A DNA stretch of 64,000 nt. It comes from Methyloprofundus sp. (GTDB lineage: Bacteria > Pseudomonadota > Gammaproteobacteria > Methylococcales > Methylomonadaceae). The number at the start of each line of letters is the position of its first letter. Position 1 is the stretch's first letter. The position numbers and the translations under genes are program-made. This document shows, piece after piece, positions 22 through 64,000 of the stretch. Where the stretch lies: assembly GCA_028599115.1 (NCBI GenBank), contig JAQRMR010000099.1, positions 14,197 through 78,196 on the forward strand. The letters are read 5' to 3'. The notes under the pieces are model-generated. The model ran no database searches. It was not told the DNA's origin and saw only the letters and a program-made list of their open reading frames with translations.

Positions 22-95
22 CTCGTTCCCACCGTCCTCGGTGGGAATGCATACTGTACATCCATCAAGATCGGTATGCATTCCACGCGGGAACG
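22..95. repeat. REP doublet (REPIN-like), right arm partly deleted
   Basis: Hairpin TTCCCACCG-tcct-CGGTGGGAA (26-47), plus the inverted pair GGAATGCATAC (44-54) / GTATGCATTCC (74-84). Confidence 0.7.
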
Positions 96-226: not shown

Positions 227-246
227 CCTTTGATTTTTCGTTAGGC
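227..246 (+). mobile_element. Right arm (L'-R') of an integron attC site; R' GTTAGGC overlaps the higA stop codon
   Basis: CTTTGAT-TTTTC-GTTAGGC (228-246) matches L'-5 bp-GTTRRRY and is exactly complementary to GCCTAAC at 873-879. Confidence 0.6.
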
Positions 247-546
247 TATTTGTGGAGGATTCAAATGGTAAGGCTCAACTTTCAATAAAGCTGTTTTTTG
301 CCTTGAATTCCAAAGGTCATATGCATTTTGTAAGCGGAGCCAATGTTCTGCGGATGGTTTTTCAAAAACTAATTCAAGCCTTAATGCCATTTCTGGTGTT
401 ACAGAACCTCTAGCATTTAATACTTTTGAAAGTGTTTTACGACTTACATTTAAATGCTTAGAAACGTCTGTAATTGTTAGCTCTAAAGGCTCAATTAAAA
501 GATCTTTTATAATTTCCCCTGGATGTGCAGGATTATGAATACTCAT
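241..546 (-). CDS. higA: HigA-family antitoxin (XRE HTH)
   Basis: HPGE motif, HTH, WLRLQNAYDL C-terminal motif; TAATG overlap with the upstream toxin. Confidence 0.92.
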   Translation of the reverse strand: MSIHNPAHPGEIIKDLLIEPLELTITDVSKHLNVSRKTLSKVLNARGSVTPEMALRLELVFEKPSAEHWLRLQNAYDLWNSRQKTALLKVEPYHLNPPQIA

Positions 547-824
547 TAGTGGTAATCCTCATAATTGACTATTTCAGTATTTCGACCTTTAAATCGAAAC
601 GTAACTCTCCAGTTTCCACTGACCCACACAGACCATATTCCCTTACGGTTACCTGTTAATTCATGTAACCGTAACCCTGGTAAATCCATATCATCAGAAC
701 ACTCGGCTTGATCTAAGTTTGAAAGTATTAAACTTAAACGCTTTGCATGGTTGGCTTGAATTCCAACCTTACTACCATTTTTATAAAACTTGGCTAACCC
801 TTTGTGAATAAAACTTAAAACCAT
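546..824 (-). CDS. higB: HigB-family (RelE-like) toxin
   Basis: F-x-HKGL start, LHELTGNRKGIWSVWVSGNWRVTFRF and EDYH C-terminus; toxin-before-antitoxin order. Confidence 0.92.
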   Translation of the reverse strand: MVLSFIHKGLAKFYKNGSKVGIQANHAKRLSLILSNLDQAECSDDMDLPGLRLHELTGNRKGIWSVWVSGNWRVTFRFKGRNTEIVNYEDYH

Positions 825-872: not shown

Positions 873-930
873 GCCTAACGATCACATCACTTGACGTAAA
901 AAAAAGGGGGGGCATCGCAAAAAATGTCAA
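873..930 (+). mobile_element. attC site lacking its L'-R' arm
   Basis: R'' GCCTAAC (873-879), 5-bp spacer, L''-like CATCACTT with C at position 4 (885-892), inner stem TTGACGT (891-897) / ATGTCAA (924-930). The expected L'/R' is replaced. Confidence 0.6.
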
Positions 931-6535: not shown

Positions 6536-6625
6536 AATGTATCCTATATAAAGTCGCTGTATTAAAAGGCTCGTATTACGCAATATTGATATTGCCCTAG
6601 GTAAGCATTATTAAATTAACATTCT

Positions 6626-6729
6626 GTAGGATGGGTAGAGTGAAGTGCCTGATTTTTAGGCACGCAGTGAAACCCATCAATGCCATGAAAAACGATGGGT
6701 TTCGCAAAAAGACAATCTACCCATCCTAC
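6626..6729. repeat. REPIN (GTAGG-type REP doublet) between pstS and pstC
   Basis: Outer inverted repeat GTAGGATGGGTAGA / TCTACCCATCCTAC; inner GAAACCCATC / GATGGGTTTC. Confidence 0.85.
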
Positions 6730-6812
6730 AAAAATTCTTAATAAAAAATATTTAAGCTCCCCTACTAACTAATTTGTAAGAGCGTCTGAAAATAATGATT
6801 ATTACAAACACC

Positions 6813-14519: not shown

Positions 14520-14596
14520 TGGCGGAGCGGACGGGATTCGAACCCGCGACCTCCGGCGTGACAGGCCAGCATTCTAACCAACTGAACTACCGCTCC
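14520..14596 (-). tRNA. tRNA-Asp (GTC)
   Basis: GGAGCGGTAGTTCAGTTGG...CTGTCAC...GTTCGAATC...CTCCGCCA cloverleaf with encoded CCA. Confidence 0.97.
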
Positions 14597-14605
14597 TTTG
14601 TCTTG

Positions 14606-14681
14606 TGGTGGGTGATGAGGGGATCGAACCCCCGACCCTCGCCTTGTAAGGGCGATGCTCTCCCAGCTGAGCTAATCACCC
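14606..14681 (-). tRNA. tRNA-Val (TAC)
   Basis: GGGTGATTAGCTCAGCTGG...CTTACAA...GTTCGATC...CACCCACCA. Confidence 0.97.
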
Positions 14682-14696
14682 CACTAAAGAAAATCA

Positions 14697-14725
14697 ATTA
14701 TATGGCAAAAATAACTCTACGTCAA
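14697..14725 (-). promoter_or_regulatory. Sigma70 promoter of tRNA unit 1
   Basis: TTGACG-17 bp-TATAAT. Confidence 0.85.
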
Positions 14726-14777
14726 CAAAAATGCGACTTTAAAAAATAATACTATCTCAAGACCTTTTATCTTAAGC

Positions 14778-14810
14778 AAAAAAAAGCCTCGAACAATGTC
14801 GAGGCTTTTT
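14778..14810 (-). terminator. Terminator of tRNA unit 2
   Basis: Identical to 14483-14515. Confidence 0.85.
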
Positions 14811-14814
14811 AATA

Positions 14815-14891
14815 TGGCGGAGCGGACGGGATTCGAACCCGCGACCTCCGGCGTGACAGGCCAGCATTCTAACCAACTGAACTACCGCTCC
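14815..14891 (-). tRNA. tRNA-Asp (GTC), copy 2
   Basis: Identical to 14520-14596. Confidence 0.97.
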
Positions 14892-14900
14892 TTTGTCTTG

Positions 14901-14976
14901 TGGTGGGTGATGAGGGGATCGAACCCCCGACCCTCGCCTTGTAAGGGCGATGCTCTCCCAGCTGAGCTAATCACCC
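14901..14976 (-). tRNA. tRNA-Val (TAC), copy 2
   Basis: Identical to 14606-14681. Confidence 0.97.
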
Positions 14977-21432: not shown

Positions 21433-21517
21433 TGGTGCGAGCGGGGAGACTTGAACTCCCACATCATAAGATACTGGTACCTAAAACCAGCGCGTCTACC
21501 AATTCCGCCACGCTCGC
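21433..21517 (-). tRNA. tRNA-Leu (TAG)
   Basis: GCGAGCGTGGCGGAATTGGTAGACGCG...TTTAGGT...long variable arm...GCTCGCACCA. Confidence 0.96.
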
Positions 21518-21535
21518 TACTCAATCTGAAACGCC

Positions 21536-21563
21536 ATTATAGACATTTAATCCAAAATTACAA
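21536..21563 (-). promoter_or_regulatory. tRNA-Leu promoter
   Basis: TTGTAA-16 bp-TATAAT followed by a GC-containing discriminator. Confidence 0.55.
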
Positions 21564-21688
21564 ATGCTAAATTGTTTTTAATAAAAAAACTTGCATCACC
21601 CTCATCAAATAAAAGACTATTACTAAGATAAAGCTGTTATCAAACAAGCCATCGCCTAACTAAACCCAGACTATATTTGAGGTATAAA

Positions 21689-21764
21689 TGGCGTCCCCAG
21701 ACGGACTCGAACCGCCAGCTATCCCTTAGGAGGGGACTGCATTATCCAGTTATGCAATGGGGAC
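21689..21764 (-). tRNA. tRNA-Arg (CCT)
   Basis: GTCCCCA/TGGGGAC acceptor stem, CTCCTAA anticodon loop, GTTCGAGTC T loop, CCA. Confidence 0.93.
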
Positions 21765-39902: not shown

Positions 39903-39930
39903 TAATATCAGTATATTAAAGGAGGAAAGT

Positions 39931-40053
39931 GTAACTTCTCATTATCCACAGGATCGAACTCCTGAATAAATGGAACGCAGGCCTTTAGCCTGCATTGATT
40001 CAGCGGCAGGCTAAAGACCTGCGTTCCAGTGCCCGTTGATAATGAGAAGTTAC
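39931..40053. mobile_element. 123-bp MITE with IS66-like ends
   Basis: 16-bp perfect TIR GTAACTTCTCATTATC; 8-bp direct repeat AGGAAAGT at 39923-39930 and 40054-40061; internal 23-bp hairpin 39971-40028. Confidence 0.85.
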
Positions 40054-40065
40054 AGGAAAGTTAGT

Positions 40066-62106: not shown

Positions 62107-62361
62107 ATTTTGCTTTGGTCCATCATTAAAATTGACACTAGTTTAATATAAATTAAGTTAATATTTAGAGAAGTTTGTGACAAATTAAAGAAACGACCAG
62201 CAACACGCCCACTAAGTTGAAATATGTTAGTGTTGTCATGCTCAAAACGTATTTTCTAGTGTCGTCTTTAAATGCTTGTTTAGGGTCAGTTTTAACTTAA
62301 GAATATCCAATAGACATCTTTCCTAAATAAAGCTTATCTTATTAACTGATGTTACGCAGTC

Positions 62362-62476
62362 GTAGGTCGTGTTAGCTTATTGAACGAAGTGAAATAACGT
62401 AACGCGACGGGTGTTTTACCACTGCTTGTCGCGTTACGTTATCTGCGCTACGCTTAGATAATCTAACACGACCTAC
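62362..62476. repeat. REPIN (GTAGG-type REP doublet) adjacent to the HUH transposase element
   Basis: Outer GTAGGTCGTGTTAG / CTAACACGACCTAC; inner ATAACGTAACGCGAC (62394-62408) / GTCGCGTTACGTTAT (62428-62442). Confidence 0.88.
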
Positions 62477-62484
62477 CTTCGCTT

Positions 62485-63244
62485 TTAAAGGGGACGCTAC
62501 CCTTTTATTTTAGAGATTTACCCCGTATAATCGCCTTTTTAACTTTAAACACCCCTTACCATGCCCCGAATTGCTCGAACTGTTTTTGCTGGTATTCCTC
62601 ATCATATTACTCAACGTGGTAATCGCCGCAATAAAGTATTTTTTACCGATGAAGACCGCCTTCAATATCTAAATTGGCTTCAAAAATACAGTCAAAAACA
62701 TCATGTTCAAATATTGGCGTATTGTTTAATGGACAACCATATTCATTTAATTGCTATTCCTAAAAATAAAGATGGATTACAGCGAGTATTAAAACCAATT
62801 CATATGCGCTATGCACAGTCTATTAATCGTCAGCATCAATGGTCTGGGCATTTATGGCAAGGACGCTTTTTCTCAAGCCCATTAGATGAAGCTTATTTAT
62901 GGTTTTGCATTCGATATGTAGAGCAAAATCCCGTTCGTGCTGGTATAGTTTCACGGGCTGAAGACTACCTATGGTCAAGTGCTGCCGGGCACTGTGGATT
63001 AAAAAAAGATGACTTGTTGTCAACCGATTCAGATTATTGGAAAGTATTTGACGGCATTAAAAATTGGTCTGACTGGCTGAAAAACGAGGAAGATAAAGAA
63101 AAACTAACCATAACTAGGCGTAATATTCAAAAAAATTTACCTTGCGGCTCAGATAGCTTTATTGAGAAACTAGAAAAAATTTCAGGGTCTTCATTAATGT
63201 TTCGACCTGTTGGAAGACCTAAAAAAGGGTAGCGTCCCCTTTAA
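62485..63244 (+). mobile_element. 760-bp element: HUH/Y1 transposase gene between perfect 22-bp inverted repeats
   Basis: TTAAAGGGGACGCTACCCTTTT (62485-62506) is the exact reverse complement of 63223-63244. No target duplication seen. Confidence 0.85.
62561..63232 (+). CDS. REP-associated-type tyrosine transposase (RAYT/TnpA-REP-like HUH Y1 nuclease)
   Basis: HHITQRGN, YCLMDNHIH (HUH), GHLWQGRF, RYVEQNPVRAG (catalytic Tyr), YLWSS, C-terminal GRPKK. The stop codon lies inside the right TIR. Confidence 0.92.
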   Translation: MPRIARTVFAGIPHHITQRGNRRNKVFFTDEDRLQYLNWLQKYSQKHHVQILAYCLMDNHIHLIAIPKNKDGLQRVLKPIHMRYAQSINRQHQWSGHLWQGRFFSSPLDEAYLWFCIRYVEQNPVRAGIVSRAEDYLWSSAAGHCGLKKDDLLSTDSDYWKVFDGIKNWSDWLKNEEDKEKLTITRRNIQKNLPCGSDSFIEKLEKISGSSLMFRPVGRPKKG

Positions 63245-63246
63245 TT

Positions 63247-63305
63247 CTGTGCGGAGCCGCATGCAGGGTGGTATGGGGAGGGTGAGAAACACGCCCTTAC
63301 CCGAT
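63247..63305 (+). mobile_element. 3' fragment of a class-C-like group II intron (partial domain V plus domain VI)
   Basis: CTG-TGCG-GAGC-CGCA-TG-CAGGGTGG (short DV lacking the triad strand); DVI GGG..CCCTT-A-CCC-GAT with bulged A63299 seventh from the AT end. Confidence 0.8.
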
Positions 63306-63317
63306 TATGTTTTTTTA

Positions 63318-63692
63318 TTAGATAAACCGTTCAACATTGACATTAAAAAAAACACTTAATTTTTTTGCAGCCTCTTTACTAATACTTCGCCGACCAAGCT
63401 CAATATCAGAAATATTTTGTCTTGTAAACTTCCCTAGCTGCTTACCTAATTGCTCTTGAGTTAAATTAAGGTTTTCTCTATATATTTTTACAACTTCACC
63501 CGGTGTTAGTGAGTCAGTTGTTTTCTTAAACCAGTCAGAAGATAAAAAATCTATCATTTCTTCACTCTCATCTACAATTTCTACATCATTACCAAAATTA
63601 TCTTGTAAATACTGAATAAGTTTTTTAGGGATTTCACCTTTAACCTCAAAAAGTGAGTTTTCAGTATGGGGCTTTTTCACGACTGCCAACAT
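63318..63692 (-). CDS. XRE-HTH antitoxin
   Basis: C-terminal HTH (YRENLNLTQEQLG..NISDIELGRRSIS). Start at the ATG at 63692 after GAGGT, inside the toxin gene. Confidence 0.85.
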   Translation of the reverse strand: MLAVVKKPHTENSLFEVKGEIPKKLIQYLQDNFGNDVEIVDESEEMIDFLSSDWFKKTTDSLTPGEVVKIYRENLNLTQEQLGKQLGKFTRQNISDIELGRRSISKEAAKKLSVFFNVNVERFI

Positions 63693-63924
63693 AATACACC
63701 TCAATATTAATAGCATCTTTGTCATGACTCCAACAAGCAACCCATGAAGTACCTAAGTGACAATGATGTTCTGTAGAGCTCAACTTACTATAGTTTTGCC
63801 AATTCGGTTGTTCTGGGCCTTTATCTTTTAAATCCATAGCCAAAACAGCCATCTTTTTTTGCACCCATAGCGGAAGTTTAGCTATATTTTTAATAACTTT
63901 CTTTTTAACGGATACTTTATACAT
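63661..63924 (-). CDS. RelE/ParE-superfamily toxin
   Basis: 87 aa, basic N-terminus, NWQNYSKL..HHCHL..WVACW..IEVYYVGSRE; upstream of an HTH gene. Confidence 0.8.
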   Translation of the reverse strand: MYKVSVKKKVIKNIAKLPLWVQKKMAVLAMDLKDKGPEQPNWQNYSKLSSTEHHCHLGTSWVACWSHDKDAINIEVYYVGSREKAPY

Positions 63925-64000
63925 AGCTCAATGTACTACACTATTAGGTACAAAACAACGACACCCTTCATTTCCCAGTTTATAGATAGTTTAACTCATA

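Follow-up and report, generated by a model that had tools for sequence, protein, structure and literature searches.

Both ends of a 64-kb stretch of DNA (hereafter the window), which comes from a Methyloprofundus-like methanotroph of mollusc and vent metagenomes, carry a stray toxin-antitoxin cassette and a short group IIC intron relic abutting a REP-type repeat, which raises the question of how the same kinds of element came to lie side by side twice. An earlier note on this DNA had proposed that an HUH nuclease repeatedly cuts intron and attC DNA and thereby relocates integron cassettes next to REP elements. We found the parts at both loci to be known kinds of mobile DNA, while movement driven by the nuclease, a REP-associated tyrosine transposase (RAYT), was unsupported in our tests, and the evidence favours ordinary decay of mobile elements nested in one another. 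What each part is, that the right block is an insertion and that REPs and introns show no wider association were all observed directly, and the features concerned are collected in Table 1.

Table 1. Features of the left and right loci, in positions of the window
Feature	Position	Strand	Remarks
REP doublet (REPIN-like)	22-95		two inverted REP hairpins, GTGGGAATGCATAC type
52-55-nt tail repeat	101-152/155	+	ends in CGTCCCCTATT; right end ...GGTCCGTCCCCTATT(GTT)
Group IIC intron 5'-end relic	159-226/228	-	GUGUGCGG... through GGGUGAAAGUCCCGC motif; ~68 nt
5' exon of left relic	229-246	-	GCCTAAC (attC-core-like heptamer holding the higA stop codon; 240-246), then GAAAAATCAAA
higA antitoxin	241-546	-	TIGR02607 antidote_HigA, E = 8.4e-29; Pfam HTH_3
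higB toxin	546-824	-	PF05015 HigB-like toxin, E = 1e-20
Second GCCTAAC, 48 nt, 27-nt segment	873-954	+	heptamer 873-879; segment 928-954
REPIN, 115 bp	62362-62476		nested inverted repeats, GTAGGTCGTGTTAG termini
Left REP hairpin of RAYT	62485-62506	+	TTAAAGGGGACGCTACCCTTTT; arm of perfect 22-bp inverted repeat
RAYT (REP-associated tyrosine transposase, HUH/Y1)	62561-63232	+	intact, single-copy
Right REP hairpin	63223-63248	+	overlaps RAYT stop codon; unit continues to ...CCCCTTTAATTCT
3'-end relic of group IIC-attC-type intron	63247-63305	+	59 nt; domain V and shortened domain VI, ends ...CCCGAU
ACATA, first five bases of attC R'' core	63306-63310	-	interrupted by intron
HTH_3 antitoxin, weakly HigA-like	63318-63692	-	PF01381, E = 1.4e-12; TIGR02607, E = 2e-6
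87-aa toxin, conserved family	63661-63924	-	308 homologues; overlaps antitoxin gene
GTTAAAC, possible 5' boundary (R'-type core) of right cassette	63989-63995	-	heptamer only, weak

The right locus

The REPIN proposed at the right end is a real, high-copy element, as its nested inverted repeats, DNA fold (-35.2 kcal/mol, z = -7.0) and read depth of 18-58x single-copy in the host metagenome indicate, with element boundaries at 62361 and 62476-80, and it belongs to a different repeat family from the REP that flanks the neighbouring RAYT gene. At least five REPIN-like elements lie within the window, and a REPIN other than this one starts at its very end, 2 nt from the GTTAAAC heptamer.

The structure earlier described as an HUH transposase between terminal inverted repeats (62485-63244) is a RAYT gene between REP hairpins, the perfect 22-bp inverted repeat (62485-62506 / 63223-63244) bracketing the Y1_Tnp ORF. 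Its translation shows an HIH motif and a YVEQNP tyrosine, it matches PF01797 (E = 6.4e-16) and narrowly misses the curated cut-off of 80 for NF047646 REP_Tyr_transpos (75.3 bits, E = 4.4e-21), its read depth equals that of single-copy flanks, and the closest match in the genome collection is 63% identical. The REP unit (63209-63242) is present at about 18x depth in the host, joints between 62507 and 63220 reveal REP doublets elsewhere in the genome with spacers of 10-25 nt, and REP copies in metagenome contig L187 end in an identical TTTAATTCT, the flank of the right REP hairpin reading ...CCCCTTTAATTC up to the C|T site. Allowing up to 3 mismatches, inverted cognate REPs surround the gene in 21 of 80 loci with RAYT homologues, and both arms are present in nine of the ten closest; homologues in Methylophaga and Cycloclasticus MAGs carry an identical hairpin at a fixed distance, and between clades REP sequence and position covary with the RAYT protein. 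The exact REP 19-mer recurs in over 120 contigs of metagenomes that span many environments, 120 REP-bearing contigs holding 223 REP cores in total. This RAYT and its REP behave as a standard REPIN-RAYT system.

The intron 3' stub seen next to this REP is genuine. A covariance model (R1) built from plasmid introns alone gave a single hit in the window, at the relic (42.2 bits, E = 7.7e-7), in which the three basal domain V pairs are broken and domain VI is kept through compensatory changes, while the 5' basal strand of domain V, the side bearing the catalytic triad, is gone. The relic has the domain V/VI structure, bulged A and AY 3' end of group IIC-attC introns such as S.ma.I2 and Kl.pn.I3, and shares about 80% identity with the 3' ends of plasmid introns of this group. 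Altogether 188 plasmid records match it, and in the plasmids inspected the matching relic lies upstream of an ISCR2-like IS91-family ORF beside sul2, or of an annotated IS91-family transposase beside sul1. Rfam RF00029 scores the relic at only 15.9 bits, since it lacks the portion that would match the start of the model, and at gathering thresholds Rfam found neither this relic nor the left one, permissive E-value scans giving weak hits. Initially the right relic was taken as an intron 5' end, since it contains GUGCG and, before 63247, other copies differ from it; this assignment was rejected, the plasmid match lying after the reverse-transcriptase ORF and ending the intron. Other metagenome copies of the right intron retain AATGAAACGCC upstream, and intron copies elsewhere in host and vent metagenomes are uncut at these points and lie in other contexts.

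At the junction itself, REP unit (...AATTC|T) and intron (...CGCCC|TGTGCGG) share a 2-nt CT overlap, intact domain V around the breakpoint reading ...AACGCCC|TGTGCGG.... The same REP-relic junction was found in a vent strain (run X5), and because this strain is divergent the junction must be old.

On its other side the relic borders ACATA, which had been noted as R''-like on the minus strand and which homology identifies as a true R'' remnant: 660 nt of DNA similarity to an integron cassette of Sedimenticola (L211) stop at ACATAA, where the attC of L211 begins, and L211 continues from there with a 100-nt attC (ACATAAC...GTTATGC). Plasmid IIC-attC introns likewise sit after ...CATA, and the right intron lies between gene and expected attC on the strand opposite to the cassette genes, so that its position and strand match both the published behaviour of these introns (PMC3001079) and two plasmid examples (L088 and L089). 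The region 63306-63400 folds no better than shuffled sequence, hence no foldable attC is present there.

The right module is predicted to be a type II toxin-antitoxin system in which a small toxin gene overlaps the downstream HTH antitoxin gene. The toxin had no Pfam or NCBIfam match, several of its 308 homologues are named 'mRNA-degrading endonuclease RelE' by JGI, and homology agrees with the earlier view of the pair as antitoxin and toxin, here an HTH antitoxin with a putative RelE-like toxin; the antitoxin is called as 124 aa in contig L001. In two relatives, L210 and the Sedimenticola MAG L211, the pair is an integron cassette with an attC, L211 being an array in which small ORFs, all in one orientation, are accompanied by attCs. 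No conclusion was drawn from our home-made attC scanners, one of which missed the true attCs of L211 and another of which gave dozens of false positives.

The flanking genes moxR and DUF5765 are separated by 213 nt in the complete genome of Methyloprofundus sp. AP023240 vs 2.38 kb in the window, and since they are near-adjacent in this relative and 2.4 kb apart here, the right block is an insertion. With the block inserted, no integron integrase in the window (best tblastn match to IntI1, E = 0.31) and the same pair an attC cassette elsewhere, the proposal that cassettes are stranded outside an integron is supported. Isolated cassettes and an integrase route to genomic sites have been described (10.1101/2022.09.11.507474; PMC4889954).

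The left locus and its likeness to the right one

At the left end, the REP doublet is upheld by its inverted repeats (33-54 / 74-95) and by the fold of 19-152 (z = -4.8), and its depth is 3-8x single copy. The tail repeat beside it holds the 8-mer CGTCCCCT (142-149), which is common to the RAYT-flanking REP and occurs three times in the window vs 0.38 expected; each of three further copies of the repeat in the host metagenome passes into unrelated sequence at 152-155. The end motif described at 131-152 is thus the terminus of a recurrent repeat, although it shares with the REP only the 8-mer and formed no hairpin in the fold test. A reading of the tail repeat as a decayed left end of the RAYT element was rejected, as local alignment to the 5' flank of the RAYT gave two short matches only (shuffle fractions 0.016 and 0.196).

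The left intron 5' stub is likewise a real relic of the minus strand, for which 159-226/228 fits better than the 155-224 first proposed. It aligns colinearly from nt 1 to the full-length introns L088 and L089 (0 of 2000 shuffles as good), begins with the GUGYG 5' end and domain I of group IIC introns, and gave a sub-threshold match to Rfam RF02003 (20.9 bits, E = 0.034). Its depth is 4-10x, other copies continue past 159, and a 42-nt version at 97.6% identity is found in contig L187. The 5' exon is the same over 229-237/240 in at least four other copies of the intron, which diverge thereafter, and this exon region has no hairpin (z about 0). Neither relic holds a reverse-transcriptase ORF, both being truncated, and for these reasons they cannot be assigned to an intron lineage; both are remnants, not functional introns.

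The matches of higA and higB to TIGR02607 and PF05015 agree with the predicted toxin-antitoxin pair of the earlier note, and blastn of higBA against plasmids returned coding-region matches alone, without cassette context. In the relative L216, thiC lies after the GGDEF-EAL gene. The second GCCTAAC is complementary to GTTAGGC at 240-246, the two heptamers flanking higBA, and the 27-nt segment directly abuts an intron 5' end at a paralogous locus, runs X1 and X2 containing the joint from 228 to 928 with a depth near that of a single copy. An attC arm claimed here could not be upheld: 229-330 (minus strand) and 865-1000 fold no better than shuffles, which leaves the GCCTAAC/GTTAGGC heptamers and the recurrent 5'-exon motif, and attC-core-like heptamers occur across the window at the chance rate (8 observed vs 6.8 expected).

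Of the two-ended mobile architecture originally described, most component parts therefore stand, whereas the left end motif amounts to an 8-nt match with the REP, neither locus has a foldable attC, and a difference between the introns cannot be upheld. Both toxin-antitoxin operons are indeed transcribed toward the relics, each relic preserves the cassette-facing portion of its intron, and both truncations lie 0-6 nt from the terminus of a repeat carrying the shared 8-mer, in keeping with the description of stubs cut near a common motif. Random deletion ends would not coincide with repeat termini twice, so the repeats must somehow have taken part in the junctions. The placing of the intron stubs on the attC bottom strand is correct for the right locus; on the left the relic lies on the same strand as higBA with no preceding hairpin, although the motif of its 5' exon recurs at other intron copies. 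Comparison of the two loci bears out that they are not duplicates of one another, HigB and the right toxin showing no similarity; that the introns differ cannot be claimed, because the relics are non-overlapping intron parts and the plasmid introns matched by one are also matched by the other. Taken singly, each of the following is significant: the relics of the introns, the remnant of R'', the homology to a cassette and, at both junctions, the terminus of a repeat.

How the junctions may have arisen

The explanation towards which we lean is that of two independent orphan toxin-antitoxin cassettes of integron type whose attCs were invaded by introns and which then decayed next to REP repeats; in what order this happened, and how the deletions arose, is what we infer from the remains. 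Each cassette would have arrived in an ordinary intergenic region, for which integrase insertion at a secondary genomic site is the known route, here an assumption because neither an integron integrase nor an intact attC was seen from the host genome. An attC-targeting group IIC intron, with a few other genomic copies, would then have homed beside each cassette; at the right locus it interrupts the R'' core of the attC and lies on the strand opposite to the genes, as is usual for such introns. Subsequent deletion would have removed the introns and the attC hairpins, leaving relics of 59 and ~68 nt, and would have stopped each time at a REP-type repeat terminus, which belongs on the right to the REP that is paired with a normal, single-copy RAYT and on the left to a 52-nt repeat beside a REP doublet. 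The shared architecture would then have ordinary causes, namely the specificity of the introns for attC-like sites, the addictive character of toxin-antitoxin cassettes and the build-up of REPs in dispensable DNA. The left geometry, with the intron on the higBA strand and a hairpin-less 5' exon, departs from the textbook IIC-attC arrangement and so argues against this explanation, as do the coincidence of truncation points with repeat termini and the right CT overlap, which fits TnpA-REP cleavage.

Homologous recombination between dispersed intron copies might instead have moved cassette and intron together to new sites that already held another copy of the intron, REP-associated deletions then trimming the introns. 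Leon and Roy reportedly put forward a model of intron-assisted cassette formation, several intron copies exist in differing contexts of the same genome, the site of one of them shares 27 nt with the region upstream of higBA, and the retention of the cassette-facing intron part at both loci would be in line with such an exchange. We nevertheless consider it unlikely, as a full-length copy or a recombinant junction was not recovered and the breakpoints at repeat termini are left unexplained.

Also unlikely in our view is the direct mechanism, in which the RAYT cut single-stranded intron/attC hairpin DNA and joined it to a REP flank, truncating the intron and capturing or stranding the cassette. 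It would account for relics that end at repeat termini bearing CGTCCCCT, and for a consistent polarity (intron 5' part then AGGGGACG at one locus, CGTCCCCT then intron 3' part at the other). E. coli TnpA-REP cleaves at C|T and performs strand transfer in vitro (PMC3333891), and the CT overlap of the right junction would fit an exchange of strands between two C|T sites. Solo half-REPs (GCGTCCCCT) are about threefold over-represented in loci carrying this RAYT's REP (25 observed vs ~8 expected), and the position of the intron relic upstream of the ISCR2-like IS91-family ORF in resistance plasmids also speaks in its favour. We know of no case to date in which RAYT genes have been shown to mobilise foreign DNA.

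Such a mechanism, if it acted repeatedly, predicts enrichment of end motifs beside intron stubs, and this was sought in RAYT and REP loci and not found. At E < 0.2 no intron ends turned up near RAYT homologues (80 loci, 463 kb) or on REP-bearing metagenome contigs (100 of 120, 465 kb), none by Rfam intron search in the 19 closest RAYT loci, and zero matches in JGI metagenomes to the exact right-junction pattern (8-mer, up to 20 nt, intron 3' end); blastn over all 120 REP-bearing contigs gave a single intron piece, whose closest REP lies 2.5 kb away. Those other host REP and tail-repeat flanks that were displayed, a small sample read from short assembly contigs which break at repeats, were never intron-like. 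The repeated cutting and relocation proposed in the earlier note thus fails that note's own test of enrichment, no recurrence having been found in these searches, and the mechanism rests on two junctions, one of which shares just 8 nt with the REP, in a hairpin-less motif of a kind that about 1% of such sites would match by chance (an estimate). A 2-nt microhomology is equally typical of ordinary illegitimate recombination, and the age of the right junction, present in the divergent vent strain, also counts against the RAYT. Because of the C|T overlap at that junction, we retain as a doubtful but conceivable event that a RAYT, a domesticated Y1 nuclease, may occasionally join the C|T on the REP side to a C|T in foreign hairpin ssDNA, such as intron domain V in an attC, truncating the intron and fixing the cassette beside the REP.

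That the resemblance of the two ends is post-hoc pattern matching in a repeat-rich genome seems rather improbable. The number of REPIN-like elements in 64 kb, the 8-nt length of the left motif and the chance-rate heptamers on which the left attC claims rest would all favour it, but the individual significance of relics, R'' remnant, cassette homology and repeat termini does not; chance is largely excluded for the parts but may underlie the match of the left motif to the REP.

A single two-cassette array (right cassette, attC with intron, higBA) split by a ~62-kb inversion with breakpoints in the intron and at the RAYT locus would explain why the relics are complementary (3' on the right, 5' on the left) and in inverted relative orientation, such that they would rebuild a canonical array, yet this is refuted by conserved synteny, since the genes on either side of the right block, moxR and DUF5765, directly adjoin each other in AP023240 and leave no breakpoint there, and since the RAYT retains both REP ends intact, so that we regard it as extremely improbable.

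Known systems and biological meaning

The RAYT locus resembles described REPIN-RAYT systems (PMC3333891, PMC3116915, PMC5581495) in having a single-copy Y1/HUH gene bracketed by its own inverted REP, which is dispersed about 18-fold, partly as inverted doublets, and covaries with the protein across relatives. It differs from them in that the REP lacks the 5' tetranucleotide GTAG, the RAYT stop codon and the right REP overlap, and the neighbouring 115-bp REPIN is of another repeat family. REPs are usually lineage-specific, whereas the 19-mer is found here without change in contigs from many environments.

The right relic is like group IIC-attC introns (PMC3001079) in its sequence identity, in its compensatory changes in domain VI and in its location after the ...CATA of R''; it and its left counterpart differ from them in that only 59 and ~68 nt survive, without reverse transcriptase, catalytic triad or attC hairpin, and in that the left copy shares the strand of higBA. 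As in SALIN and CALIN elements and attG insertions (PMC4889954; 10.1101/2022.09.11.507474), single cassettes distant from an integrase lie in otherwise syntenic intergenic DNA, and close homologues of the right module are normal attC cassettes. A SALIN is defined by its attC, however, and here the attC is gone but for 5 nt. ISCR elements are IS91-family HUH rolling-circle elements found beside integron remnants, with Y2 enzymes and oriIS and terIS ends. They offer a precedent for an HUH enzyme beside truncated integron DNA, and plasmid matches of the right intron relic lie upstream of IS91-family ORFs, whereas the gene in the window is a Y1 RAYT with REP hairpins and no sign of moving neighbouring DNA.

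If RAYT joining were true, cassettes could be stranded or captured without an integrase, much as by ISCR elements but through a RAYT, and had the RAYT made these junctions, they would be the first sign of REP-associated nucleases rearranging foreign mobile DNA. Apart from this, one REP/RAYT family is common, almost base for base, to many environmental bacteria, and the two loci are a clear natural example of integron cassettes outside integrons in a genome of the methanotrophic symbiont type, in which the intron relics date their history.

The REP-associated transposase and its surroundings

The element that the earlier note had described as a HUH transposase between terminal inverted repeats is a Y1/HUH open reading frame within a perfect inverted repeat, but the repeats are the cognate REPs of an ordinary REP-associated tyrosine transposase (RAYT). 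The hairpin AAAGGGGACGCTACCCTTT lies at a fixed distance from RAYT homologues in Methylophaga and Cycloclasticus MAGs, a covarying version (GGGACACTCCCC) accompanies a deltaproteobacterial clade of homologues, and the host contains dispersed copies of the REP unit (approximately 18x depth), inverted doublets among them; this identifies the repeats as REPs. Each arm folds by itself as a small hairpin. The protein matches Pfam Y1_Tnp (E = 6.4e-16), scores 75.3 bits against the NCBIfam model "REP-associated tyrosine transposase" (cut-off 80), is single-copy according to read depth, and its best match in the scanned genome collection, which did not include the host genome, is 63% identical. The neighbouring REPIN (DNA fold of -35.2 kcal/mol, z = -7.0) is sharply bounded and has 18-58 times the depth of single-copy host sequence.

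More than 120 contigs, of sediment, freshwater, groundwater and marine origin, contain the exact REP 19-mer AAAGGGTAGCGTCCCCTTT, which is unusually broad conservation for a REP; only 28 of the 120 such contigs taken as a set (223 REP cores in all) carry a RAYT homologue.

Features of the window and of L001, the host contig reaching past its right end
Feature	Position	Strand	Description
REPIN	62362-62476		115-bp nested palindrome
REP arms	62485-62506 / 63223-63244		perfect 22-bp inverted repeat
RAYT	62561-63232		223-aa Y1/HUH open reading frame between the REP arms
Right intron relic	63247-63305		corresponds to the last 59 nt of full-length plasmid introns adjoining blaIMP-4 and dfrA14
Left intron relic	226-159	minus	starts GUGUGCGG, carries GGGUGAAAGUCCCGC motif
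Tail repeat	101-152/155		52-55 nt, ends ...GGTCCGTCCCCTATT, beyond the truncated side of the left relic
Homopolymer tract	893-912		A8-G7, upstream of higB
REPIN-like inverted repeat	6622-6733		TTCTGTAGGATGGGTAG...
REPIN-like inverted repeat	L001 1553-1620		ATAGGATGTGCC...GCACATCCTAT, just beyond the window end
Solo half-REP	L001 1687-1700		TAGCGCCCCTTTAG, about 140 nt beyond the right end of the window, no 5' stem, right-REP-arm orientation
Nested palindrome	39929-40055		127 bp, nearly perfect, ends GTGTAAC...GTTACAG
tRNA genes	14523-14976		tandemly duplicated gene pair; the pairs are identical and lie about 295 bp apart
tRNA genes	21436-21764		two further tRNAs

At least five REPIN-like elements occur in approximately 64 kb, the two end ones included. 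The palindrome at 39929-40055 (about -69 to -73 kcal/mol when folded with RNA parameters) resembles a REPIN or an attC, and its family is distinct from those of the other repeats of the window. Four mollusc-metagenome runs contain almost the whole sequence of the window, vent ("volcano") metagenomes contain roughly two-thirds of its words, and public host assemblies break at the repeats of the two loci.

Intron relics and toxin-antitoxin cassettes

An assignment of the right relic to an intron 5' end was wrong, as plasmid matches place it at the intron's end, after the reverse transcriptase: it is approximately 80% identical to 188 plasmid records, in which it lies past the C-terminal end of a group II reverse transcriptase, closing the intron. 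A covariance model of the intron end, built from five plasmid sequences and no others, had its sole match in the window at 63240-63305 (42.2 bits, E = 7.7e-7), with domain VI preserved through compensatory changes and the three basal domain V pairs disrupted, their 5' strand having been replaced by the REP; other metagenome copies still have an intact AATGAAACGCC upstream. The REP-relic junction is common to the host and a vent strain, so the event is old, and domain VI (63280-63292) falls 8 nt short of its length in other copies and at the orthologous locus of the vent strain, meaning that decay continued after truncation. On two resistance plasmids the same intron 3' end is also truncated, lying between sul2 and an ISCR2-like IS91-family ORF together with a reverse-transcriptase ORF remnant (L084, 3036-5445), and flanked by sul1 and a gene annotated as an IS91-family transposase (L086, 3001-5188).

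The right toxin (87 aa) belongs to a conserved family named RelE by JGI and matches no Pfam model, and the antitoxin is an HTH_3 protein. A homologous pair in a Sedimenticola MAG lies within an array of small co-oriented ORFs with attC sites between them, and a 91%-identical pair on a JGI contig is followed by an attC. Over 660 nt, beginning at the promoter and ending with ...ACATAA, the window is homologous at the DNA level to the Sedimenticola cassette; the homology stops at the start of that cassette's attC (ACATAAC...GTTATGC), which is where the window's intron starts, and the minus-strand ACATA proposed as R''-like is therefore genuinely a remnant of R''. Within this remnant the intron occupies the opposite strand from the cassette genes, which agrees with the published behaviour of IIC-attC introns (PMC3001079) and with the placement of plasmid copies (...CATA|intron). 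The attC hairpin and approximately 97% of the intron are gone, and the window contains no integron integrase.

Methyloprofundus sp. AP023240 has DUF58 and moxR separated by 213 nt from the two DUF5765 genes that come next, whose proteins are 89% identical to those encoded just right of the window, a match that makes the host a Methyloprofundus-like methanotroph. Here the moxR-DUF5765 distance is 2.38 kb. The whole right block (REPIN, RAYT, relic, cassette, further REPIN, and the half-REP beyond) is therefore an insertion into a conserved intergenic region, and the half-REP leaves cassette and relic flanked by two REP-right-type sequences.

At the left locus higB and higA were clearly identified. 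Its relic scores below threshold against Rfam RF02003 (E = 0.034) and is colinear with plasmid introns from the first base, none of 2000 shuffles scoring as well; its depth is 4-10x and other copies extend past 159. Its 5' exon, ...AAAATCAAAGG, is common to at least four other intron copies, so the exon-intron junction is an original insertion site, and a 27-nt segment upstream of higB directly adjoins the intron in a paralogous locus. The proposed attC arm is suggested by GCCTAAC, within which the stop codon of higA lies, and by its complement, the two flanking higBA, but nothing there folds better than shuffled sequence. The higBA block was probably inserted as well: in a relative, the GGDEF-EAL gene is followed at 385 nt by thiC and its riboswitch. 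The A8-G7 tract, which may represent a variable stretch of the promoter region of higBA, differs between strains in length and A/G boundary (AAA or AAAA inserted at 897, A>G at 903-905; metagenome runs X5 and X6).

Origin of the junctions

The claim that a HUH nuclease repeatedly cuts intron/attC DNA failed the earlier note's own test, which called for end motifs to be enriched beside intron/attC stubs. At E < 0.2 the intron-end model found nothing in 463 kb from 80 RAYT-homologue loci, nor in 465 kb from 100 of the 120 REP-bearing contigs, and Rfam, which did pick up the positive control, reported no intron for the 19 closest RAYT loci. Blastn over all 120 contigs gave one intron match, 2.5 kb from the nearest REP. 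JGI metagenomes gave no match to the right junction as an exact pattern (8-mer, at most 20 nt, intron 3' end), and the displayed host flanks of other REP and tail-repeat copies have no relation to introns. On this evidence, the REP-intron association is confined to these two junctions. The blastn match is a 42-nt relic of the left intron's 5' end (97.6% identical, cut at a different point) on L187, an unrelated JGI contig, at 1312-1352, 2.5 kb from two REP copies and upstream of a small tyrosine-recombinase gene.

The left end motif is recurrent, since the tail repeat has three further genomic copies with an identical end point, none continuing into intron sequence, but its match to the REP is limited to the 8-mer CGTCCCCT and it formed no hairpin in the fold test.

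Relocation driven by the RAYT has a low probability. Several observations nevertheless point to a part played by the repeats: both truncation points are repeat termini, which random deletions would not give; the L187 REP unit ends ...TTTAATTCT, as in the window, and the intact intron reads ...CGCCCTGTGCGG, hence a 2-nt CT overlap at the right junction; the TnpA-REP of E. coli cuts at C|T and is capable of strand transfer in vitro (PMC3333891); and REP-bearing loci carry about three times as many solo half-REPs as expected. These observations fit joining by a nuclease, but microhomology-mediated deletion, or REP-by-REP recombination once a REP had landed in the intron, fits them equally well. 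Since the two relics are complementary parts in opposite orientation, a single two-cassette array split by a 62-kb inversion was tested, and it is ruled out by the moxR-DUF5765 adjacency in AP023240. The two toxins are unrelated by BLAST and the antitoxins share 33% identity over the HTH.

In conclusion, the parts of both loci are real and well defined, and the architecture is best explained as nested, decaying mobile elements of known kinds: orphan integron toxin-antitoxin cassettes comparable to SALIN/CALIN (PMC4889954; 10.1101/2022.09.11.507474), relics of group IIC-attC-type introns and a standard REP/RAYT system.
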